Shown here one piece after another: positions 6,705-38,452 of a DNA stretch of 52,509 nt (the first letter of the stretch is position 1; each line of letters starts with the position of its first letter). The DNA lies in the NCBI GenBank assembly GCA_012974305.1, contig JAAXQN010000213.1:1-52509 (forward strand), read 5' to 3'. A program made the position numbers and the translations under genes. Below the pieces are notes generated by a model that ran no database searches, was not told the DNA's origin, and saw only the letters and a program-made list of their open reading frames with translations. Origin of the DNA: Candidatus Methylomirabilis sp. GTDB lineage: Bacteria > Methylomirabilota > Methylomirabilia > Methylomirabilales > CSP1-5.

Positions 6705-6746
6705 AAACCCGCCGCTCCTGTAAGTCCCCGTTCGGAGGGCGGGTTT
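6705..6746 (-). terminator. Putative intrinsic terminator downstream of the anti-sigma gene
   Basis: AAACCCGCCGCTCC ... GGAGGGCGGGTTT inverted repeat. On the minus strand it is followed by a GTTTGTTGT tract, and it sits 12 nt past the stop at 6758. Confidence 0.5.
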
Positions 6747-6757
6747 GAAAAGAGGAT

Positions 6758-7555
6758 TCAGGACTGCTCAGCCTCGAAGAAGACCCGGGCACATTGGAAA
6801 AGCTCGTCCCAGCCCACATCCGAGACCAGCGCGTAGGTCATCTTCCCGCTTTCCCAGAGGAGAATCTGTTTCATGAGATACTCTCCGGTCAGAAAAGTTC
6901 TGCCGTCCCGCTGGATCTCTTGCAGGCCGCTGAGGGAGGCCTCGTATCTTGGGAACGCAAAGAGGGAGATGATATTGCGTCCCTTTTCGTACACGATATA
7001 GCCCGCGCGGCGACCGCGCAACTCCGTGACCCGTCCCCCCAGCAGTTGGATCCCCGAAGCGCTATAGTCAGGGACCCGAACCGAATGTCCTGTCTGCCGC
7101 TGAACCCAAAAGGCGACCTGCTCGGTATTTTTACTGGGGAGTTCGGCAGGGTTTTCCAAGGGGGCGAATTTCATGTGCTCCGACACCATTTCCGTTACCA
7201 GGGGGTGAATCCCGGGCTTGGAAACAGGCTGCGCGATGAGATACCCGAGAACCCCACCGAGGGCGAAGAAGGCAATCGAAGCGGCCAATGCCAATGACGA
7301 GACCGGCACCCGAGAGGGACGCTGCGGTTGCTCCTCCTCTGCGATCCTCGCTCTGAGACCTTCTGCGAGATGAGGTGGAACGGGTTCCCGAGCAATTTTT
7401 GTCCTGAGCTCCTCCCGGAAAGCCTGCTCTGCCTCCACCGCCTGGCGGCAGGAGGGACATGACTGAAGGTGGGCTTCCACATCCAGCATCTTGGGCGCCT
7501 CGAGCTCGCCGTCACAATAGGCTTGAAGATACGGCGCTATTTCGTGTGAGGTCAT
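6758..7555 (-). CDS. Anti-sigma factor (zf-HC2 N-terminus, single TM, periplasmic C-terminal domain)
   Basis: The 'HLQSCPSC' H-x3-C-x2-C motif lies near the N-terminus and a central TM segment follows. I placed the start at ATG 7555, which overlaps the sigma-factor stop as ATGA. The ORF track extends to 7660. Confidence 0.75.
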   Translation of the reverse strand: MTSHEIAPYLQAYCDGELEAPKMLDVEAHLQSCPSCRQAVEAEQAFREELRTKIAREPVPPHLAEGLRARIAEEEQPQRPSRVPVSSLALAASIAFFALGGVLGYLIAQPVSKPGIHPLVTEMVSEHMKFAPLENPAELPSKNTEQVAFWVQRQTGHSVRVPDYSASGIQLLGGRVTELRGRRAGYIVYEKGRNIISLFAFPRYEASLSGLQEIQRDGRTFLTGEYLMKQILLWESGKMTYALVSDVGWDELFQCARVFFEAEQS

Positions 7556-8118
7556 TCGTCCTCCTGTGGTGCTTTGTCGCCCCCCGCATACTGCTTCAGG
7601 GCGTCTCGAAGAGCCTGCCGGCCCCTGTACAACCGGGACATCACCGTCCCGATGGGACACTCACAGATCTTAGCGATCTCTCGATAGCTACAACCCTCGA
7701 TATCCGCCAGGACTACTGCCACCCGAAGCTTGGGGGAAAGCGCGTCGATGGCTCGTTCGATGTCCTCCCCCGCCAACCGGTGGATCAGATCGACTTCCGG
7801 ATTCCCCGGAAGTGAGCTGCTCGTCCCCCCTTCCCGGTACACCCGCTCTTCGTCTAAGTCCACCGTGGGGTACGAGGCTCGCCGGACACGATTCACAAAG
7901 AGACTGTGAAGGATCGCAAAGAGCCAGGCCCGACAATCGGTCCCCGACCGAAACTGGTGGAAGAAGCGGTAGGCCCGGAGAAATGTCTCCTGGAACAGGT
8001 CCTCCGCATCCGTCTTGTTTCGGATCAGCCGCAGGGCCGTACTGTATATACTTTGCATATGGACCAGGGCGGTCTCCTCAAACTCCTGCCGCCTCTGGTC
8101 CTCTTGGTCGGGTCCCAT
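7552..8118 (-). CDS. ECF (group 4) RNA polymerase sigma-70 factor
   Basis: Region 2 ('DAEDLFQETFLRAYR') and region 4 ('SYREIAKICECPIGTVMSRLYRGRQALR') are both present. The ATG at 8118 lies 6 nt after SD GGGAG. Confidence 0.9.
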   Translation of the reverse strand: MGPDQEDQRRQEFEETALVHMQSIYSTALRLIRNKTDAEDLFQETFLRAYRFFHQFRSGTDCRAWLFAILHSLFVNRVRRASYPTVDLDEERVYREGGTSSSLPGNPEVDLIHRLAGEDIERAIDALSPKLRVAVVLADIEGCSYREIAKICECPIGTVMSRLYRGRQALRDALKQYAGGDKAPQEDE

Positions 8119-8388
8119 CACCGACTCCCGGTGGAGGGGGAGAGGACCCTATTCTCTGCAAACACCTTCCGTGCCGAGAATATTCCTTTCCCCCGAGGTC
8201 GATACCCTGCCATCTTTGACGAATCTCCGCCGGCTGTCAACCGCCCAGGGCCGTCCCCGCATCAAGCCTTTCTGGCTGCAATGGGGAATATAACTCGCCA
8301 TCGCCCTGTTCATCACATATATATATGAGACTGAAGAGGCATTGGGGGATTCCGTGTCCTCCATGCCAGTGAAAAAAGGGGGACAACA

Positions 8389-9480
8389 GTGAACCTCATG
8401 AGGGGGAGCATGAAGGGATTTATCCTTGGTGCTGCATTCCTCCTGAGTCTTGCGTGGGTCCCTCATGGTCAGGCTAGTAGCCTCCCCTACCAGGGAAACC
8501 TGACCATTGATGGAGAACCGGTGATCACGGTACTCGGGAAAGATGCGATCCCGGCCATCGATCGGCCGGAGTTTCTGTCCCTCGAGGAGGCCGATCGGTA
8601 TATGCAAGACGACGAGCCAGTCTTGGGGGTCCGCCGAGGCGAGGAAGCCCGAGCCTACTCTCTCTGGCAGCTCAATCACCACGAGATTGTCAATGACCAG
8701 ATCGGGGATCTCCCCCTCGCCATTACCTGGTGACCCCTCTGCTTCTCGGGCATCGTGTATGTCCGACCCACGCATCAGGGAAAGCCGCTGACCTTCGGGG
8801 TCAGTGGGATGCTCTGGAAAGATGCGCTGGTTATGTACGACCGGGAGACCGAGACACTCTGGAGCCACCTCAATGCCAAGGCCATCCACGGCCCTCTCCA
8901 GGGGATGCAGCTCAAACCCTATCCCGCAATCCACACAACCTGGGAACAATGGAAGCAACTCCATCCCGATGGCCAGGTGTTGTCTAAGCGCTCCATTCTC
9001 GGTGGCACCGGGGTTCGGCATGACGTCTACCAGGGATACATGGCGGATCCGAATCGTATGGGGATCTTCGGGAGGCGCAATCCGGATACCGCCCTGCCCG
9101 GAAAGGAGCACGTCTTTGGCCTCACCCTGCATGAGGCGAGGGTTGCCTATCCTTTTCGGTATCTGAGCCGCTCCCCCCTCGCGCACGACACCGTGGCAAA
9201 CGAACCGATTCTGGTGGTCTTTGCAGCCACGGAGGCCACCGCAGTCGCCTTTTCCCGTCGAGTTGATGGAAAGACACTCGATTTTACCCATCTGCGCCGG
9301 ATGAACGGAGATTGGTTGATGGAAGATTCCTCGACCGGGTCCCAATGGCGGGCCGTGACGGGGGAAGCGATCGCCGGCCCATTAAGAGGGTCCCAGCTGA
9401 CTCGAGTTCCCGGCCACCAGGTGTTTTGGTTTGCCTGGAAGGGATTTTATCCGAACACGCGCATCTGGACCGGTTTATAA
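8389..9480 (+). CDS. Exported DUF3179-family protein with an in-frame UGA (candidate selenocysteine) at codon 115
   Basis: The track ORFs 8389-8733 and 8755-9480 are in the same frame and separated only by TGA 8731-8733. The joined product reads 'DAIPAIDRPEF...HEIVNDQIGDLPLAITW-U-PLCFSG...LTFGVSGMLWKDALVMYDRETETLWSH', which is the continuous DUF3179 signature with U in place of the first Cys of CPLC. The N-terminus looks like a signal peptide. Confidence 0.7.
8746..8766 (+). promoter_or_regulatory. SECIS-like hairpin downstream of UGA 8731
   Basis: UCGGGCAU-CGUGU-AUGUCCGA is an 8-bp stem (one G.U pair) with a 5-nt loop. The stem starts 12 nt after the UGA and the loop GUG lies at +22 to +24. 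Confidence 0.4.
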
Positions 9481-27561: not shown

Positions 27562-27591
27562 AAGAAGAAAATGGGGTCAGACCCCATTTTT
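27562..27591. terminator. Bidirectional hairpin terminator, copy 1 of an identical 30-bp repeat
   Basis: AAGAAGAAAATGGGGTCAGACCCCATTTTT has a 9-10 bp stem (AAAATGGGG/CCCCATTTT) with T-tracts on both strands. It lies 12 nt past the SagB-like stop. Confidence 0.65.
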
Positions 27592-27602
27592 CACGGTTCC
27601 CT

Positions 27603-29321
27603 TCACCGCGACCAGCCCTCCTCTTCAACCCTTGCGCTGTCTAAGTGAAAATAGGGCGACAGCGTCATCAGCCGCGGGTCGTCGACCGGACCGCCAACGG
27701 TAAAGTGGTACAGGCTCTGAAAGCGATCTCCGCGCAGGCTGAGCAAGTTATGAAAGGCGTCGTCGAAGTAACATCCGATCCCAGTGCCGCGGACACCGGC
27801 GGCCTCTGCTTCTAGGTACAGCACCTGACCCAGCAGGCCGGATTCCCAAAACAGTTTTCGATACCACCATGCACCTGTTCCACGGATGCTTTCGGCGAAT
27901 TCGGCAATCATACCGAGGCTGAAGGCGCCGGCGGCGGCAATCTCCTGATGGCAGCTCACCACCTCTGCCTGCTCGCGGAAGTTTCCCTCGACCAGTGTGA
28001 ACAGTGGCAGGTACTCCGGGCATCCCTCCGGACGTTTCCAGAGGAAGTCGGCACGGAGGGCAGACCGTAGGCACTCGTGGACCGTCGGACTTCGCTCAAA
28101 GACGTACAGGCCTGACGGTAAACCCTGCACCCGATGCACAAAGATGCCGCAATGGAGATGCGGCGGCCAAGGCCAGACGTCCCAGGGCGGCACTCCGGGC
28201 CGTGGCAGCAGCCGGTCAAGCATGGCATAAAATGTCTCGGCCGAGATCGAGGTGATGCCGTCGAGAGCAAGACAGCTGCGGCGCTGCTTGATAAGCTGAA
28301 CAGCGTTGATTTGCGAAGAGACACTCGGGCGAGCTGGCCACGCCGCGTCCTTGTCTCCAATAACCGTGTCACCACGTCTTCGTGTCCCCGTGGCTCCGTC
28401 CTCCTGCCAGGTCGCCTCGGCGGCAGCATCAATCGCTGACCAGTGGACATGATCAGGGCTGAGTGAGTTGGCCCGGCCCGCCCAAGCACTAGCATGGAGC
28501 ACTTCCCGCAGCTTCGCAATGTCAACCCCCTCTGATTCCTCACCTTTCCCGGGAGGATGGGAAGGGCCGATGAGCAGAAGGGCGTCGGGATGTTCGCGGT
28601 CCTCCTCGGCAATGGCCGAGAAGCTCTCTAGCTGGGCCAGCCCCAGCACGGCGGCAATGTCCGTATCTGAAACATCTGCTATCAGCCTGGCCGACCATCC
28701 CAGCGACGCGGCCGCATATCGCACGGTGGCGATGGCATGGCCGGCATCGTGCTGGCAGTAGCGAAAAGCGCGCTCGCCGTACTTCCAGGCCTCGCGCCAA
28801 TGAATCGAAGACAGGCCCACGAGAAAGGAAGCTGGCGGGAGCGACTCCGCCAGCTGCTGTGCCGCTCGACCTTCCAGAACACAGCGCCGCTCCAGGTAGT
28901 GGTCCCGGCTGACGTAGTGATAGACACCGGCATTCATGCCCGGCATCTCCGGAAGGATTGCATAGCCTTCCGTGGGGTGAAGGTTGCCGCTGGACGGGTT
29001 GCAACGCAAGGCCCAGCGACTACCCTTGTACTCCTTCCAGGCTGACAGTCCCAGGGCCAGCTCGAACAGTATAGCCACGCTGTTCCGTTCCAGCGGCATG
29101 GGAGGGATGGCACCGGGAAAATAAAGGTCGGGATAGGCCGCGTCGAGCCGGCCAGCTAGAAGAGGAAGTTCGACCCTTTCCGCGCCAACGAAGGTGCGAA
29201 AGGGATCAGGCTGAGTGGCCCAGTCCAGATATCCCAGCGACGCGGCGTACTGGTGCAAGTGATGCTTGGTGCGGTGATGGTAGGCCAGCACGGCTTCGAC
29301 CGAGTCCTGTTCTTTGGTCAT
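27603..29321 (-). CDS. SagB/ThcOx-family (double nitroreductase-fold) dehydrogenase
   Basis: 572 aa. The N-terminal 'AYHHRTKHHL' signature is present, and both halves have nitroreductase-like segments. The protein ends with 'GIGCYFDD'. Confidence 0.7.
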   Translation of the reverse strand: MTKEQDSVEAVLAYHHRTKHHLHQYAASLGYLDWATQPDPFRTFVGAERVELPLLAGRLDAAYPDLYFPGAIPPMPLERNSVAILFELALGLSAWKEYKGSRWALRCNPSSGNLHPTEGYAILPEMPGMNAGVYHYVSRDHYLERRCVLEGRAAQQLAESLPPASFLVGLSSIHWREAWKYGERAFRYCQHDAGHAIATVRYAAASLGWSARLIADVSDTDIAAVLGLAQLESFSAIAEEDREHPDALLLIGPSHPPGKGEESEGVDIAKLREVLHASAWAGRANSLSPDHVHWSAIDAAAEATWQEDGATGTRRRGDTVIGDKDAAWPARPSVSSQINAVQLIKQRRSCLALDGITSISAETFYAMLDRLLPRPGVPPWDVWPWPPHLHCGIFVHRVQGLPSGLYVFERSPTVHECLRSALRADFLWKRPEGCPEYLPLFTLVEGNFREQAEVVSCHQEIAAAGAFSLGMIAEFAESIRGTGAWWYRKLFWESGLLGQVLYLEAEAAGVRGTGIGCYFDDAFHNLLSLRGDRFQSLYHFTVGGPVDDPRLMTLSPYFHLDSARVEEEGWSR

Positions 29322-29339
29322 TTTCCGAGCTCGCCTAGG

Positions 29340-29369
29340 AAGAAGAAAATGGGGTCAGACCCCATTTTT
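29340..29369. terminator. Bidirectional hairpin terminator, copy 2 of the identical 30-bp repeat
   Basis: Same 30-mer as 27562-27591. It lies 15 nt past the msrB stop and 19 nt upstream of the SagB-like start. Confidence 0.65.
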
Positions 29370-30290: not shown

Positions 30291-31829
30291 CTAATATACC
30301 GAATGCCGAAGTGCTCCGGCACCCGTGGCGAGCGCGAGGGACTGCGGGGCGATCGCTTTTCCCATGCTCCCCCCAGCGGCGAGAGACGCCGCCCCAAACA
30401 CGTCGGGCACGGCGGCCTGGGAGCTAGCAACCGCCACCAAATTGCCAAACAGCGCATTGGACGCTGTGTTGGTCCCGGCCACCGCGTTGCCGAGAAGCCC
30501 CAGGAAGACGGCAGCGAGCGGAAACCAAAAGCCCGAGGCGGAGAAGGCAATACCGATGGTCAGACTGAGACCAGAGTAGTTCATCAGGTAGCCGAGACCA
30601 AGTATGTTCAGCGTCGTCTTGATAGCGGATGAAAGCTGTCGAATGGTATTCACGTAAACGCGAATGGCTCGGGCAGGAGGAATCCGGAGCACGGCAACCG
30701 ACAGGAGGCCGGTGATCAGCGCGAGGGTCCCCGGCACCACGAGCACGGGGTAGCTGTACACGGCGGCATACGGTCCAGGCTCGGCCACGATCGGCGTCGT
30801 TTTCCAGACGAAGTTGTGCAGACCCGGCCAGTCGACACTGAACGTGCTCAACGAGGCAAGCCCTTCACGCAGCGGCGTCGCGTTGACCAGACCCATGACC
30901 ACAATCAGAAGACCAATCGGCGACCAGGCCTGTACAATCTGACGCCAGGATAACCGAACACCTGAATGCAACGCCTCCTCAGGCACCCGCTCGCCAGGAA
31001 AGTACCAGGCAGTTCTGGGTCTCCAGCGGGATAAGACAACGACGGTCGTCAGCATGCCTGCCAACGCGCCGACAATTCCAGCCGCGTACAGGGTCAGGTA
31101 GTTAGAGGCCACAAAGGTGCCCACCGCGAAGGCGAAGCCTGTGGCGAGAGTTATTTGCCATACTTCTTTGAATCCTCGCCAGCCTGACACGGCTATAACT
31201 ACGGCAGGAGCGGTAACAAGGGTGTAAAAAGGAACCTGTCGTCCGATCATGGCACCGAGCAGATCGAGGTCGAGCCCGGTGGTCACCGAGTGCAGGACGA
31301 TGATGGGCAAGCCCATAGGCCCCCAGACACCAGGATGGCTGAAGGCGAGCAAGGCTACAATGGCGGCGGTAAATGGGGGAAATCCAAAGCCGACGAGCAT
31401 AGGTGTACCAATCGCGACGGGAGAGCCAATCGCCACCAGTCCCTCCAGGAGTCCGATAAACCCATAGCCGATCAGCAACGTCTGCATGCGGCGATCGCGT
31501 GTAATATATCCGATGGACTCCTTGATCACGCTGAAATGGCCGCTATCCATGAGCAAGTTCACCAGCCACACCGCATTGACCAACGTCCACAGTAAGGGCA
31601 TTACCGCTACAGCCATTCCCATGAGCGTGCTGGCAACGGCCAGATGCAGCGGCATGTGCCAGATGGTCACCGCAAAAACCAGCGCCGATGACAGCCCGAC
31701 GAAGCTCGAAAGGGATGCGGGTTTGCGAAATCCCCCAAGCAAGATGAACATGAGGGCAATGGGGAGCAGGGCAACGGCAGCGGAAAGCATGACGCTGTCC
31801 AGCACGGGCGAATATGACTGCAGCCACAT
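30291..31829 (-). CDS. lctP: L-lactate permease (LctP family)
   Basis: 512 aa and polytopic. The C-terminal 'NYSGLS...GTNTASNALFGNL...GGSMGKAIAPQSLA' region matches LctP signatures. Confidence 0.85.
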   Translation of the reverse strand: MWLQSYSPVLDSVMLSAAVALLPIALMFILLGGFRKPASLSSFVGLSSALVFAVTIWHMPLHLAVASTLMGMAVAVMPLLWTLVNAVWLVNLLMDSGHFSVIKESIGYITRDRRMQTLLIGYGFIGLLEGLVAIGSPVAIGTPMLVGFGFPPFTAAIVALLAFSHPGVWGPMGLPIIVLHSVTTGLDLDLLGAMIGRQVPFYTLVTAPAVVIAVSGWRGFKEVWQITLATGFAFAVGTFVASNYLTLYAAGIVGALAGMLTTVVVLSRWRPRTAWYFPGERVPEEALHSGVRLSWRQIVQAWSPIGLLIVVMGLVNATPLREGLASLSTFSVDWPGLHNFVWKTTPIVAEPGPYAAVYSYPVLVVPGTLALITGLLSVAVLRIPPARAIRVYVNTIRQLSSAIKTTLNILGLGYLMNYSGLSLTIGIAFSASGFWFPLAAVFLGLLGNAVAGTNTASNALFGNLVAVASSQAAVPDVFGAASLAAGGSMGKAIAPQSLALATGAGALRHSVY

Positions 31830-32133: not shown

Positions 32134-32879
32134 GTGTCTCAGTTTTGCAGGGAGTATTTGCGGGGTGACTTACGCTCATGGATTGTAATGAAAACTCTCA
32201 AGAGTGATCCCCCGGACACGGTGTCAATTCCACGAATTTCTGTCATCATTCCGGCACGGAACGACGCCGCCGCCCTCGGCCAGACCCTTGACTACCTGGA
32301 TGGCCTCGTGAGGAACGACGCGGTCGAGGTCATCGTGGCAGCCTCCGGCGACCCTGGCGGCACGGAACGCGCTGTGGCGGGGCGGGCAAAGCTCCTCTGG
32401 CCCTCGGGGTCCACACGATCCACCCTGATGAATGCAGGTGCGGAAACCGCGCGCGGTGAAATTCTCTTCTTCCTCCATGCCGATTCCTTCCCGCCGGCGA
32501 GTGTTTTCGAGCTCATTGACCAGGCCCTGTCCAGCAATGACGTTGCTGGTGGCGCCTTCGAGCATCTCTTTGTGTCCGAGCCGCCCTGTTCCGCGAAATG
32601 GACGGGTACAAGGACCTTTGGGTCTTGGAAGATCTCGAATTCACCCAGCGCCTCAAGCGGGTTGGACGATCCATCCTGATCCCGGTGCCGGTGCTCACGT
32701 CTGGACGGCGCCTGCTCGCCCGCGGACCCTGGCGCACTTTTTGCTTCATTGTATGGTTGCTGTTTCTGCACACCATGCGGCTCGATACCCAGCGGCATGC
32801 CGAGCGCTGGCGTGGCCCGGGAGACAGTCCGCCGGGAAGCCCATGCCCCCGTGGTCGTCTGCAACAAGGAGTTTGCTGA
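32134..32879 (+). pseudogene. Frameshifted and internally shortened TIGR04283-like GT2 glycosyltransferase (third paralog)
   Basis: Frame 1 reads 'ISVIIPARNDA...LMNAGAETARGEILFFLHADSFPP...GGAFEHLF'. Homology continues only in another frame from about 32572: 'VRAALFREMDGYKDLWVLEDLEFTQRLKRVG...TSGRR'. About 30 aa found in the intact paralogs between 'GGxF' and 'FVR' are missing. Confidence 0.55.
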
Positions 32880-34287: not shown

Positions 34288-35691
34288 ATGACGCTGCTCT
34301 GGGTGGCCCTTGTCGGCTACGGGATATTGATGTATCTCGTCTCGCCCCGGGCCACCGACTCCAAAGCGTTCTACTGGGGATACGACGCCCAAGGGCGAAA
34401 GACCGGTTTCTGGTTGCTCACGTGCAGCACCTTTATCACCTGGATATTCGCCAAGTCGGTGACCAACGCTGCCAACCTGGGAGCAACGTACGGCATCGTG
34501 GGCGGCCTCGCCTATGCCACGTATTATCTCTCTATCCCGGTGGCGGGGATCGTTATCGTTTCGATCCGCAAACGCTGGGGCTCTCGGAGCCTCTCCGAGT
34601 TCCTCGTCAGCAAATACGGCCGAACCGCCGCCACGGCCTTCCTTCTCGTCGTCACCATTCGGCTCTTCAACGAGGTGTGGAGCAATACTGCCGTCGTGGG
34701 CTCCTACTTCGGGGGGAAAGGAACCTTTCCGTATTACGCCGCCGCCTTTGTCTTTACCGCCCTGACCCTCATTTACAGTCTCAAAGGGGGGCTCAGGAGC
34801 TCGATCATTACAGACATGCTGCAACTCGTGCTGGCCGGATTCTTTCTCTTCCTCCTCCTGTTCCACCTCTTCCCCCGGGTCGGACCGGGAGAACTCCTCC
34901 AGGCGGGCGAGTTTTCTTTTCGCGGAGGCCTCGATATCCTCCTGGTCGCTTTCCTCCAGATCTGGAGCTACCCCTTCCATGACCCGGTCCTCACAGACCG
35001 GGCTTTCATTGCGGACCGTCAAGCGACGGTTCCAGCCTTCTGGGCGGCGGGGATCGGCGGGATTCTGTTCATCCTCCTCTCCAGTCTGATCGGCATCTAC
35101 GCCTTTAAGGAGGGATTGGCCTTTACCGACGATGCGCCCCGGGTCGTGGCGGCGTCTTTCGGCCTCGGCATTCTCTTTGCGATGAACGTCATCATGCTCT
35201 GCTCTGCCGGCTCCACCCTCGACTCCACGTTCAGCTCTGTTTCCAAGGAAGCCGGAGTTGACCTGGCCGCGATCGGGTTCGACCGCTGGAGGGACCGTGT
35301 GGGGATTGGAAAGTTGGCCATGGTGGTCATCGCGCTCCTAGGGAACCTTCCTCTCTTTGCCGGGGCCTCGATCCTTCAGGCCACTACCATCAGCGGAACC
35401 ATGGTGATGGGGCTGGCGCCCATCTTCATTCTCCACTTCCTCCCGTCTGTCCCGCGCGCGTCCTTCCATTTCGCATTCTGGCCCGGACTGGGACTTGGCA
35501 TCCTGTACACCCTGGGGTGGGTCCCATCTGCCCTGGCGATCGGGAACGGCCGGTATGCTATGCTGCTGGGCGTGAACTTCTATGGGCTGCTTCTGTGCAC
35601 GGGCCTCTTTCTCGTCCCCTGGGCCTATGAACGCGTGGCCTATACGAAATTCGCTCGCCGCTTGGCCGCCGTGATGGAGAACCGACGTTGA
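34288..35691 (+). CDS. Sodium:solute symporter (SSS) family transporter
   Basis: 467 aa with about 13 TM segments. The N-terminal 'FYWG....G.W.L..S.FITWIFAKSVTNAANLG' pattern is present. Confidence 0.8.
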   Translation: MTLLWVALVGYGILMYLVSPRATDSKAFYWGYDAQGRKTGFWLLTCSTFITWIFAKSVTNAANLGATYGIVGGLAYATYYLSIPVAGIVIVSIRKRWGSRSLSEFLVSKYGRTAATAFLLVVTIRLFNEVWSNTAVVGSYFGGKGTFPYYAAAFVFTALTLIYSLKGGLRSSIITDMLQLVLAGFFLFLLLFHLFPRVGPGELLQAGEFSFRGGLDILLVAFLQIWSYPFHDPVLTDRAFIADRQATVPAFWAAGIGGILFILLSSLIGIYAFKEGLAFTDDAPRVVAASFGLGILFAMNVIMLCSAGSTLDSTFSSVSKEAGVDLAAIGFDRWRDRVGIGKLAMVVIALLGNLPLFAGASILQATTISGTMVMGLAPIFILHFLPSVPRASFHFAFWPGLGLGILYTLGWVPSALAIGNGRYAMLLGVNFYGLLLCTGLFLVPWAYERVAYTKFARRLAAVMENRR

Positions 35692-36542
35692 CCATCCCGA
35701 CCGCACCGCTTTTGGAATTGAGCACTCTCTGGATCCAGGTGACCGGGACATGGTGTAACCTGACCTGCACCCATTGTCTCAACAGCAGCGGTCCCCACAA
35801 TCCCTGGCTCAAAAGCTTGGACACAGATATGGTGATCCGGTCCATCAAGGAGGGAGCCGAACTCGGCATCAAAGAGATCTACTACACCGGAGGAGAGCCT
35901 TTCCTTCACAAAGATATGCTCCTTCTCACCGCCCACGCCCTCGAGGTGGCACCGACCACGATCCTGACAAACGGAACCCTGATTACAGAACAGGTTGCGG
36001 ACCATCTGGCGGCGTTGGCCCAAAACTCTCCCTACTCCCTCGAGATCCGGATCAGCATCGACGATGTGGATCCGGAAAAGAATGACCGAATCAGAGGAAA
36101 GGGGGCATTTTCGAAAGCCATCCGGGCGCTGCAGGTGCTTCACAGTCGCGGACTTCTCCCTATCGTCACTGCCACGGAAATCTTGAGGGATGAGCTGCCA
36201 GAAGGGAGCGGGATGTACGAGCAATTTCGGGACCTCCTCCTCTCGCTCGGCATCACCAAGCCTCGAATGAAGATCATGCCCGTTTTTTCCATTGGGCGGA
36301 TGGAAGGAGAGGGGGGGCCGCTGCTCACGCCGGAAATGCTTGACGGGTTCGACTATTCCCTCCTCCAGTGTTCGGAGACCCGCGTGGTGGCTGAAGGGGG
36401 GGTGTACGCCTGTCCCATCCTGGCCGGGCTGCCGCAGGCACGCCTTTCCGAGAAGAGCCTCAAGGAGGCATTCAAACCCTGCGACCTCTACCACACGGCG
36501 TGCGTGACCTGCTATGAGACAGGGATGACGTGCAAGAACTGA
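35688..36542 (+). CDS. Radical SAM protein with C-terminal Cys-rich domain, ArsS (TIGR04167)-like
   Basis: 'WCNLTCTHC' is a CX3CX2C motif. 'YYTGGEPFL' and 'DRIRGKGAFSKAIRALQVL' follow, and the C-terminus is 'CSETRVVAEGGVYACP...CDLYHTACVTCYETGMTC'. The TTG start overlaps the SSS stop as TTGA. Confidence 0.75.
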   Translation: MTIPTAPLLELSTLWIQVTGTWCNLTCTHCLNSSGPHNPWLKSLDTDMVIRSIKEGAELGIKEIYYTGGEPFLHKDMLLLTAHALEVAPTTILTNGTLITEQVADHLAALAQNSPYSLEIRISIDDVDPEKNDRIRGKGAFSKAIRALQVLHSRGLLPIVTATEILRDELPEGSGMYEQFRDLLLSLGITKPRMKIMPVFSIGRMEGEGGPLLTPEMLDGFDYSLLQCSETRVVAEGGVYACPILAGLPQARLSEKSLKEAFKPCDLYHTACVTCYETGMTCKN

Positions 36543-36545
36543 GAT

Positions 36546-36580
36546 GGTTCAGGGTTGAGAGTTGAGGGTTCAGGGTCACA
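36546..36580. repeat. Tandem heptanucleotide array (5 units, GGTTSAG)
   Basis: ggttcag ggttgag agttgag ggttcag ggtcaca, beginning 4 nt after the rSAM stop codon. Confidence 0.8.
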
Positions 36581-36636
36581 TAAGGCGTAAAGAACAAATC
36601 ATGAATCCCGACCGCTAACAAAACGTCTTGAATCTA

Positions 36637-36692
36637 TGAACCATGAACTCTGAACTATGAACTGTGAGCAGTGAACCATGAACCGTGAACCA
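36637..36692. repeat. Tandem heptanucleotide array (8 units, TGAACYN), inverted relative to 36546-36580
   Basis: tgaacca tgaactc tgaacta tgaactg tgagcag tgaacca tgaaccg tgaacca, with exact 7-nt phasing. It overlaps the phosphoesterase start codon at 36678. Confidence 0.8.
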
Positions 36693-37478
36693 AAGGAGTA
36701 CAGGCGGATTGCCGTCTGTGGGGGGATCTACAACAACTATCTCGCCCTCGAGGCCGCGCTGGAAGATATTCGGCGGCGAGAGGTCGAGGCCGTTTTTTGC
36801 CTCGGAGATATGGGGGCCTTTGGTCCACACCCGGATCGGGTCTTCCCCCTGCTGGGGGAGGGAAAGGTCCTGGCCATCCAGGGCAATTACGACCAGTCCC
36901 TCGCGACCGGCCTGGATAACTGTCATTGCGGCTACACTGACCCACGGGACAACTACTTCGCCCAACTGAGCTACGAGTACACCTTCCGAAAGACCTCGCA
37001 CGAAAACAAGGCGTGGCTTGGCAAGCTGGCGACGCATCGGCGTGTGAAACTCGGACAGTACCGCGTTCTCATGTGTCACGGCTCTCCGCGGCGGACCAAC
37101 GAGTTCCTGTGGGAGAGCACCTCGCCCAACTGCCTTCTGGAAAAGTTCTGTCGGGACTTCGAGACCGACATCCTCCTCTGCACCCACACCGGGATCAAAT
37201 GGCATCGGGCCCTCGACGGGTACGGCCACATCATTAACGTGGGGACCATTGGCCGACCCGAGAACGACGGTCAAGTGCATGTCTGGTACACTCTGCTTAC
37301 CGCTGGGGATGACCTCCAGGTGGAGTTTATCCCGGTGCGCTACGACCACGAAACGCTGGCGCGGGAGATGGAAAAAGAGGGTCTACCGTCGGAGTTCATC
37401 GAGACCATCCGGACCGGCTGGTGGACTACGTGCCTCGAAATCCTCCCGGCCAAGGAGCGAGCTCGCGGCAAATATTGA
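36678..37478 (+). CDS. Metallophosphoesterase-family protein with an atypical motif I
   Basis: 'LGDMGAFGP', 'QGNYD', 'MCHGSPR' and 'CTHTGIKW' match calcineurin-like phosphoesterase motifs II-V. Motif I reads 'CGGIYNN' instead of 'DxHG'. Confidence 0.8.
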   Translation: MNREPKEYRRIAVCGGIYNNYLALEAALEDIRRREVEAVFCLGDMGAFGPHPDRVFPLLGEGKVLAIQGNYDQSLATGLDNCHCGYTDPRDNYFAQLSYEYTFRKTSHENKAWLGKLATHRRVKLGQYRVLMCHGSPRRTNEFLWESTSPNCLLEKFCRDFETDILLCTHTGIKWHRALDGYGHIINVGTIGRPENDGQVHVWYTLLTAGDDLQVEFIPVRYDHETLAREMEKEGLPSEFIETIRTGWWTTCLEILPAKERARGKY

Positions 37479-37480
37479 GA

Positions 37481-37578
37481 GACCGTTGACCGTTCACCGA
37501 CGACCGACGACAGCTTGGAAGAGAACAACAGCAGAAAGAGGAAGGGTCTTGGCGGTCAACGGTCGTCGGACGTCGGTC
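37481..37578. repeat. Second pair of heptanucleotide arrays (GACCGTT/GACCGAC units and their complements)
   Basis: Left arm 37481-37511: gaccgtt gaccgtt caccgac gaccgac gac. Right arm 37551-37578: ggcggtc aacggtc gtcggac gtcggtc. The right-arm units are complements of the left-arm units but in the same order. Confidence 0.75.
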
Positions 37579-37599
37579 ATCTCCAGTGGTGATGCCGAG

Positions 37600-38339
37600 A
37601 TGAAGAGCACCCGTTGGGTAAGTAAATTCACGAACAGTGTACTCGTTCAGGTCTTCAAACATTTTCCGTGGTTGGCCGAGCGCTGGGCAAGAAGCCACCA
37701 GTTTATCGAAGGCAAGGGCATCCCCTGGACCCCCCTCGGCAAGCCTCTTCGAGAGTGCCGCATTGCAATGGTCACCACCGCGCCTTTCCCGCTGATGTGG
37801 ACAAAACCGACCTCACGATCACCCACAAGTACTACGATCATTCCGCGGCAGATAGCGACATCAACGTCGTCCTCCCCATCGACCGGCTCCAGGAACTCAG
37901 GGATGAAGGAGTGATCGGAAACATCACGTCCACCCTGTATAGCTTCATGGGCCACATCGACGGTCCGCACCTGAAGACCCTCATGGAGGAGACAGCGCCC
38001 GAGGTCGCGGAACTCCTGGTCCGGGACGGGGCCGAGGCCGTTTTTCTCACGCCCGCCTGAGGTCTGTGCAACCAGGCCGTGGGCCTGATGCAGCGGACGA
38101 TCGAGGCCAGGGGGATTCCCACCATAGGCATCACCCTCCAGAAAGAGATCACAAAGCAGGTCAAGCCCCCCCGGGCCCTCTACCTTCGTTATCCCTTTGG
38201 CCATCCGCTCGGGGAGGCTTTTCAGGTTAAGCAGCAGCGGACCATTTTGCTCGAGACGCTCAAGGGTCTGGAGACCATCAAGGACCCAGGGACTATTCTG
38301 GAACCAGGCTATGTCTGGCGACGGCACCGCTTTGACTGA
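37600..38339 (+). pseudogene. GrdB-family (glycine/sarcosine/betaine reductase selenoprotein B-like) gene with in-frame UGA (candidate Sec) and an apparent frameshift near 37780-37790
   Basis: Frame 1 reads 'GIPWTPLGKPLRECRIAMVTTA'. Frame 0 continues 'AFPADVDKTDLTITHKYYDHSAADSDINVVLPIDRLQELRDEGVIG...AVFLTPA-[TGA 38058-38060]-GLCNQAVGLMQRTIEARGIPTIGITL...PPRALYLRYPFGHPLG'. The track ORFs 37668-38060 and 38079-38339 share a frame. Confidence 0.6.
38073..38087 (+). promoter_or_regulatory. SECIS-like hairpin downstream of UGA 38058
   Basis: CAGGCC-GUG-GGCCUG is a perfect 6-bp stem that can be extended by flanking GCA/UGC pairing. The loop GUG lies at +19 to +21 from the UGA. Confidence 0.4.
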
Positions 38340-38452
38340 AGTGGTAGCGGGATTGACTTATGAACCTACTGGCCTAGTATTAAGATGGTACTGGAACCTG
38401 ATTGTCCTCACCTCTCACAGTTCATCTGCGATGTTTGTTAGGAGTTTAGCCG

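Follow-up and report, generated by a model that had tools for sequence, protein, structure and literature searches.

A PrdB-like selenoprotein gene in a marine Methylomirabilota lineage: a conserved in-frame UGA with a covarying SECIS-like hairpin, and a 67-nt deletion apparently private to one contig

Does an in-frame UGA encode selenocysteine (Sec) or end translation, and does a broken reading frame a few hundred nucleotides upstream of it reflect gene decay or a faulty record? Both questions are raised by a locus at positions 37600-38339 (plus strand) of contig JAAXQN010000213.1, from the Candidatus Methylomirabilis sp. assembly GCA_012974305.1; the whole 52,509-nt stretch that was analyzed is referred to here as the window. 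The intact gene encodes a protein of about 268 aa, a PrdB-like member of the GrdB/'selenoprotein B' superfamily found in a marine Methylomirabilota (NC10) lineage. Its UGA is conserved across phyla together with a hairpin resembling a Sec insertion sequence (SECIS), and its interruption in the window is a 67-nt deletion that other public copies of the locus lack.

A conserved in-frame UGA and its hairpin

The open reading frames (ORFs) 37668-38060 and 38079-38339 on the plus strand lie in one common frame and are parted only by the TGA at 38058-38060, as was reported in a preliminary description of this DNA, and the translated read-through product is ...DINVVLPIDRLQELRDEGVIG...AVFLTPA-UGA-GLCNQAVGLMQRTIEARGIPTIG...RHRFD-stop. 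The parts of the gene, together with the ORF that overlaps it on the other strand, are as follows.

37600..37781, plus strand: 5' coding segment of the PrdB/GrdB-like gene, in window frame 1 (MKSTRWVSKF...GIPWTPLGKPLRECRIAMVTTA)
37778..37785, plus strand: deletion junction, between 37781 and 37782, from the alignment to the ortholog L001 and to near-identical contigs
37782..38057, plus strand: middle coding segment, in window frame 3 (AFPADVDKTDLTITHKYYDHSAADSDINVVLPIDRLQELRDEGVIG...AVFLTPA), with the Pfam GRDB match
38058..38060, plus strand: in-frame TGA, predicted Sec codon of the U-G-L-C (UxxC) motif, in TPA-U-GLC
38061..38339, plus strand: 3' coding segment after the predicted Sec codon (GLCNQAVGLMQRTIEARGIPTIGITL...GYVWRRHRFD), with the stop TGA at 38337-38339
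38071..38089, plus strand: predicted SECIS core hairpin within the coding sequence, from the RNAalifold consensus of 81 sequences
37647..38327, minus strand: antisense ORF of 226 aa, a shadow ORF of the GC-rich, strongly conserved sense gene and not a gene

Each segment has its own counterpart among homologs. The 5' segment matches two intact orthologous contigs, L083 and L087, at 100% identity, and the protein homologs P0133 and P0131 have the same beginning; past GIPWTPLGKPLRECRIAMVTTA, the frame opened by ATG 37600 continues into unrelated sequence. The N-terminal frame-1 segment therefore belongs to the family, in agreement with the alignment to L001, and the frameshift suspected earlier is real in the window sequence. 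The middle segment has homologs that are 70-80% identical, and the 3' segment has its homologs in the C-terminal halves of P0022 and P0083, two full-length protein calls, and is matched by the NCBIfam PrdB model up to position 235 of 238. In orthologs, some gene callers choose an alternative start corresponding to TTG 37549, which gives calls of 192 aa; ATG 37600 is the more likely start, because TTG 37549 falls within the right arm of an inverted repeat in the leader (see below). The antisense ORF, already suspected of being a mis-call, was rejected as a gene, given that homology, the conserved TGA and covariation at codon positions are all found on the plus strand, and that callers report the sense gene alone on intact orthologous contigs.

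The conservation of the UGA was followed in a scan that took a single genome for each GTDB species and returned at least 587 loci encoding relatives. The best 80 were retained, and these come from Methylomirabilota, Rokubacteria, Deltaproteobacteria/Desulfuromonadales, SAR324, Tectomicrobia, Nitrospirae and Caldilineaceae. TGA occupies the homologous codon in 79 of these 80 genome loci, as well as in L001 and in the window, within the context TP[AGT]-TGA followed by G-x-C-N-[QR], and conservation of the coding sequence persists 3' of the TGA. The motif given earlier as 'TP(A/V)-U-x-x-C' is seen in these best 80 loci as TP(A/G/T)-U-G-x-C, conserved across phyla with TGA at U, and the expectation that homologs carry Sec at this position is borne out. 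The exception (L076) is a deltaproteobacterial locus with GGA (Gly) for TGA, in which the hairpin sequence is retained. Two paralogous copies (L002 and L003), both with TGA, are present in the Methylomirabilota metagenome-assembled genome (MAG) MohnsGC08_bin020.

The hairpin CAGGCC-GUG-GGCCUG, which had been noticed at 38073-38087 with its GUG 19-21 nt after the UGA, is present and is conserved with compensatory changes. In an alignment of the TGA plus 60 nt from 81 sequences (alignment A3), RNAalifold predicts a single conserved stem of 7 bp, in which columns 14-20 pair with columns 26-32 around a 5-nt loop, N-G-U-N-G (columns 21-25); in the window this stem starts 11 nt after the UGA and pairs 38071-38077 with 38083-38089 around the apical loop CGUGG (38078-38082). 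Within the loop, G22 is nearly invariant and U23 invariant, which places the G-U 19-20 nt after the UGA. The window itself has a C·A mismatch at the pair 38072/38088 and an extra C-G pair at 38078/38082, the latter producing the perfect 6-bp stem 38073-38078/38082-38087 with its GUG loop. Across the alignment, 97.1% of the cells in the 6-bp core are paired, and covariation reaches 0.308, compared with 0.129 ± 0.011 in shuffled alignments (0 of 500 reach 0.308) and with at most 0.09 when the 3' partner is slid. Double changes are found at three stem pairs, in compensatory sets that join Ala GCC with Gly GGC, Thr ACC with GGU, and Ser UCC with GGA or GGG, or that set Gln CAG/Leu CUG against CAA/UUG and Asn AAU/Ile AUC against AAC/Val GUC. 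These changes fall at synonymous or near-synonymous codon positions, and the covariation of the hairpin therefore goes beyond protein constraint alone. The single-sequence fold (-22.1 kcal/mol, z -1.8) adds a longer lower stem, which was set aside as unconserved among the 81 sequences, and an Rfam scan of 37400-38450 returned no SECIS family and only chance-level matches.

The bSECISearch consensus (Zhang and Gladyshev 2005) reportedly places the apical-loop G(U) about 16-37 nt from the UGA. The hairpin resembles the bacterial SECIS of the E. coli fdhF type, namely a stem-loop inside the ORF right after the UGA with a loop G-U, here at 19-21 nt, and differs from it in that its conserved stem is short (7 bp) and a bulged U is not conserved. 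It thus fits the bacterial SECIS pattern, and would be expected to be bound by SelB. For the widespread PrdB-like family, it adds a clean SECIS supported by covariation.

Alternatively, the UGA could be an ordinary stop separating two small proteins, a GRDB N-domain and a protein of 83-86 aa, and it is true that callers split all orthologs at the TGA into products of 172-192 aa and 83-86 aa. This is very improbable: TGA keeps to one codon in different phyla, with synonymous variation in the neighboring codons, the frame and the protein conservation run straight through it, the NCBIfam models of PrdB and GrdB both align across it, UxxC is the catalytic motif of the family, and a covarying hairpin lies 3' of it at the distance of a SECIS. 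Two points tell against the Sec reading. The Val GUN and Gly GGN codons of the hairpin are also under protein constraint, which covers the loop G-U (a conserved Val codon), and the window contains no tRNA gene, hence no tRNA-Sec, and no SelB or SelA motif, according to a tRNA-Sec scan and crude motif scans that, being confined to the window, are uninformative for the genome. Because TGA is conserved in nearly all of the loci and the hairpin is maintained by compensatory changes, the UGA at 38058-38060 is nonetheless judged, from comparative sequence evidence, to be a genuine Sec codon with a genuine SECIS. The locus should accordingly be annotated as one selenoprotein gene, disrupted in the record of the window, and not as two short ORFs or as the antisense ORF.

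In intact copies, by analogy with bacterial SECIS elements, the hairpin would recruit SelB·GTP·Sec-tRNASec, and the UGA would be read as Sec. The product would carry U-G-L-C as a presumed selenol/thiol redox pair, as in PrdB and GrdB, which would form a selenenylsulfide in a reductive reaction. An AlphaFold model of the homolog P0022 (predicted local distance difference test 82, predicted template modeling score 0.83) places the Sec position between a strand (166-170) and a helix (176-188), with UxxC in the loop before the N-terminus of the helix; such a strand-loop-helix N-terminus is the usual site of a redox-active selenol/thiol pair. In the same model, the segment deleted in the window corresponds to high-confidence core just after the first beta-strand. 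From the window copy, which has lost 22 of the most conserved residues and shifts frame, the protein cannot be made. Neither the family profile nor the intact protein found a homolog among PDB sequences, and a Foldseek search of the P0022 model against the PDB gave nothing significant, the best matches (E 0.016, TM at most 0.32) being generic alpha/beta sandwiches; the strand-loop-helix placement of UxxC is thus the one clue to mechanism that the model offers.

Family membership and relation to known reductases

The assignment to the GrdB family in the preliminary description was upheld by profile searches, in which the intact ortholog was scored with U replaced by C. With the Pfam GRDB model (PF07355, gathering score 22), the broken conceptual product scores 39.5 bits and the intact ortholog 48.1. 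Against the NCBIfam model TIGR01918 ('reductase selenoprotein B family', cutoff 65.45), the intact ortholog scores 67.5 and the deleted window product 62.2, just under the cutoff. The equivalog models score further below their cutoffs: TIGR04483 (PrdB, cutoff 300) gives 137.4 bits for the window product and 180.9 for the intact ortholog, and TIGR01917 (GrdB, cutoff 602) gives 65.9 bits, over model positions 222-430 only. Of the NCBIfam models, PrdB is the one that the window product resembles most. A reading frame running uninterrupted through the whole domain is missing from the window, whereas orthologs at 99-100% DNA identity are intact.

A search of protein collections recovered 546 relatives (E up to 1e-5), the closest of which are annotated as 'selenoprotein B family protein' or 'PrdB' (NCBI, JGI) and come from Candidatus Methylomirabilota. 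Most of the relatives, many of them named Methylomirabilota, are 172-192 aa long, that is, they are calls ending at the UGA, and two full-length calls translate the UGA as W.

PrdB is reportedly the 26-kDa Sec subunit of the clostridial D-proline reductase (Kabisch et al. 1999) and is represented by TIGR04483. The gene described here shares with clostridial PrdB a nearly full-length homology (model positions 20-235 of 238, in the 180.9-bit match of the intact ortholog) and a Sec in UxxC, and differs from it in scoring far under the 300-bit equivalog cutoff and in its neighbors, which are genes for a radical S-adenosylmethionine (SAM) protein, a metallophosphoesterase and a two-component system. 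Since the score is below the cutoff and prdA and prdC are not found nearby, D-proline reduction cannot be assumed. GrdB, GrdF and GrdH of the glycine, sarcosine and betaine reductases share homology with it over the C-terminal ~210 residues of GrdB (model positions ~221-430), including the Sec region; unlike GrdB (~430 aa), the present protein has no counterpart of the N-terminal half, and it scores 63-66 bits against cutoffs of 600-800 (TIGR01917, NF040794, NF040795). As judged by its profile matches, the gene is thus a member of the GrdB/PrdB superfamily and not demonstrably a D-proline reductase subunit.

A gene of this kind has long been known. The Sargasso Sea selenoproteome of 2005 and the Global Ocean Sampling analysis of 2008 (PMC1088965, PMC2398784) list 'Proline reductase PrdB' (pfam07355, with UxxC) among the marine selenoprotein families of highest abundance, and the PrdB UxxC family was also found in the genomes of Geobacter and Anaeromyxobacter (PMC1794560). 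The present gene shares with that family the Pfam domain, the Sec in first position, a majority of members with Sec rather than Cys, occurrence in marine metagenomes and Deltaproteobacteria, and a size (~265 aa) near that of the 26-kDa PrdB. It differs in nothing essential, the window copy being merely broken by the 67-nt deletion, and is an ordinary member of the PrdB/GrdB-like selenoprotein family. The marine Methylomirabilota lineage and the conserved upstream neighbors (see below) are not discussed in these three papers.

The 67-nt deletion and two others nearby

In the DNA alignment to L001, the window lacks exactly 67 nt, or 22 codons plus 1 nt, between 37781 and 37782. The frame switch had been expected at 37780-37790 and a loss of 20-25 residues had been predicted, and the alignment now fixes both and shows these estimates to have been accurate. 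In intact copies the missing stretch is CGGGGTTCACCTGAAGTCCCAGCCCCCCTTCAATATGGAGGATCCGGACGGGGACGCAACCTTCCGC, it lies between two CCGC direct repeats, and its 22 codons encode GVHLKSQPPFNMEDPDGDATFR, whose residues G62, V63, H64, K66, Q68, F71, M73, D75, G78, D79, F82 and R83 are invariant or nearly so in the family. It is hardly conceivable that ribosomes bridge the two frames, through a programmed frameshift or a translational bypass, and that the gene works in its present form: beyond two abutting open frames nothing speaks for bridging, the 22 invariant or nearly invariant residues are absent from the DNA itself, and neither a slippery site nor a bypass signal is conserved, since the relatives have no frame change at all.

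The same 67 nt were found in every other near-identical copy. Six contigs encoding an identical neighboring response regulator, L082-L087, contain the identical 67 nt, with flanks that are up to 100% identical to the window; one of the six is from an NCBI MAG, two are from JGI metagenomes, one is from a Logan assembly and two are from ENA assemblies; in L083 and L087, the left flank is 100% identical. Logan contigs of the runs X1 and X2 span the site with 0-4 mismatches (0 in the flanks) and the 67 extra nt, and the loose ends of contigs from the runs X4 and X8 show the intact sequence. Altogether, nine independent public sequences, either assemblies or run contigs, are near-identical to the window and cross the site, and the 67 nt are present in 9 of 9. 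The flanking sequence occurs in 20 public metagenome runs (marine sediment, seawater, rock, cold seep), and a 60-nt query centered on the junction, so that each of its 31-mers crosses it, was found in 0 indexed runs. An exact search for the junction in JGI metagenome contigs gave 0 matches, a weak test given that the positive control with the intact junction gave only 1. The 67-nt deletion is on this evidence private to the window sequence.

When contigs of four runs from three studies were compared with the window along its whole length, two further losses of the same kind came to light. Between 30313 and 30314, a stretch of 58 nt (AGAAGGAGG...GGAATAC) is missing from the window, whereas the four runs have it, as does L090, an ENA contig of 72.8 kb assembled independently; this cuts the C-terminus of a lactate permease (30291-31829, minus strand) to 512 aa instead of 545, with the Pfam domain matched only to position 490 of 522. 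Between 32573 and 32574, 91 nt present in the same four runs and in L090 are missing, which splits a family-2 glycosyltransferase, 260 aa when intact (...GGAFEHLFVERGWSLRTITWINRIRYRLTRNYYGDQGIFVRAALF...), into the ORFs 32134-32679 and 32598-32879. Neither loss has microhomology at its ends. Both genes are intact in L090; compared with the window, this contig shows 4 substitutions over 6930 nt near the 58-nt site (99.94% identity) and 0 over 2260 nt near the 91-nt site (100%). Within 7.5 kb, the window thus has three frameshifting losses of 58-91 nt that are private to it, each of a length that is a multiple of 3 plus one, and the run-contig and contig comparison found no further deletion of this kind elsewhere in the 52.5 kb.

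The break in the PrdB-like gene is therefore probably an artefact of assembly, consensus or record rather than evolutionary decay, because three large frameshifting deletions amid almost no substitutions do not fit divergence. Several considerations weaken this view. It draws indirectly on comparison with other public copies; Logan contigs leave out rare variants and the index does not cover many of the runs, so that the absence of the junction is no proof; and De Bruijn assemblers cannot normally invent junctions with an overlap of only 0-4 nt, so that real molecules, chimeric reads, or an error in long-read consensus or post-processing must underlie such a junction.

The deletions could, on the other hand, be real, in which case the window would derive from a recent strain mutant with permease, glycosyltransferase and PrdB-like gene inactivated, the last being a very young pseudogene. 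The 4-nt CCGC repeats that bound the 67-nt loss are what replication slippage or microhomology-mediated deletion would leave, junctions spelled by short-read assemblers do occur in reads, and strain-level mosaicism is obvious at the locus. We consider this rather unlikely, given that three deletions in 7.5 kb against 4 substitutions in 9.2 kb are far more large indels than the substitutions predict, that the 58-nt and 91-nt losses are without microhomology, that the junction is absent from the indexed runs while its flanks are found in runs of many studies, and that the nine independent copies are all intact. Of the two options in the preliminary description, 'decaying or mis-assembled', the evidence leans toward the second, a mis-assembly or record artefact, or at most a strain-private lesion, and away from decay: the other public copies are intact, and these copies indicate that the break is not lineage-wide decay. 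Inferences of 'gene decay' or 'pseudogene' from the window warrant a check against reads at the private deletions at 30313, 32573 and 37781.

Neighborhood, strain variation and a second selenoprotein gene

Two genes precede the PrdB-like gene on the same strand.

35688-36542, plus strand: radical SAM protein
36678-37478, plus strand: metallophosphoesterase

Downstream lies an OmpR-type two-component system (response regulator and histidine kinase), and an SSF symporter and a DegP-like protease are further neighbors within about 5 kb. No prdA (pyruvoyl proprotein), prdC, grdA, grdE or grdC was found nearby, in the window or in nearby contigs. The close order radical SAM-metallophosphoesterase-PrdB-like on one strand (35688-38339) is kept in 17 of about 25 Methylomirabilota/Rokubacteria loci (L002-L026), with 59-88% protein identity, and is not conserved in the deltaproteobacterial loci. 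In Methylomirabilota, the PrdB-like family thus has conserved radical SAM and phosphoesterase neighbors instead of PrdA. The three genes may form an operon, which would be a lead to function. It is a distinctly speculative proposal, and one we hold to be improbable, that the PrdB-like protein of Methylomirabilota/Rokubacteria is encoded by the terminal gene of a three-gene unit that carries out a Sec-dependent reductive reaction without PrdA, and is not a proline reductase subunit. A separate and weaker idea takes the clustered deletions, all three of them, to be real, the strain being one in the course of losing the last gene of this unit.

The leader of the gene (37481-37581) contains a long imperfect inverted repeat with 28-nt arms, 75% complementarity and a perfect 12-nt core (GACCGTTGACCG/CGGTCAACGGTC), which folds alone at -42 kcal/mol (z -2.2) and encloses a Shine-Dalgarno-like site, GAGGAAGG, and the TTG 37549 start. 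The repeat may serve as a terminator for the gene before it or have a regulatory role, or it may be an element similar to repetitive extragenic palindromes. The N-terminus of the relatives occurs in two forms, MKSTRWVSKFTNS... and MGRLHDLANT..., and one contig of run X4 joins 37471 to 37669. L001 differs from the window by only two mismatches over 37464-37781, with 8-14% divergence on either side. Such mosaicism at the 5' end suggests recombination among strains. That the near-identity of L001 stops at the deletion junction might be taken for the sign of a chimeric join, an idea rejected on the grounds that L083 and L087 are near-identical to the window on both sides; by this comparison, the pattern stems from mosaicism among strains in L001 and not from the junction.

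The window contains a second candidate selenoprotein gene, the DUF3179 gene at 8335-9480 (plus strand), with an in-frame TGA at 8731-8733 in W-U-P-L-C and a hairpin, seen by eye, of the form GGGCAU-CGUGU-AUGUCC at about 8746-8762. This gene with its in-frame TGA, which had been mentioned in passing before, is real, the portion after the TGA matching PF11376 (E 4e-57). DUF3179 is on the list of selenoprotein families in a 2026 review, and 63 selenoproteins were predicted in one Methylomirabilota MAG (PMC13188914). The DUF3179 gene and this literature on Sec-rich Methylomirabilota lend indirect support to the use of Sec by the organism.

Strain variation is also seen at two other places in the window. 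Contigs of the runs X1-X3 depart from it at about 27570 and at about 29347-29350, points that flank an ORF of 572 aa (27603-29321, minus strand) with a weak match to a nitroreductase domain; the ORF is also found in L090, and 27570-29350 looks like a strain-variable island. Finally, a cluster of small indels (1-6 nt) relative to the runs X2 and X3 lies at 6718-6757, adjoining the gene at 6758-7660, and is the sole small-indel variation in the first 20 kb of the window.

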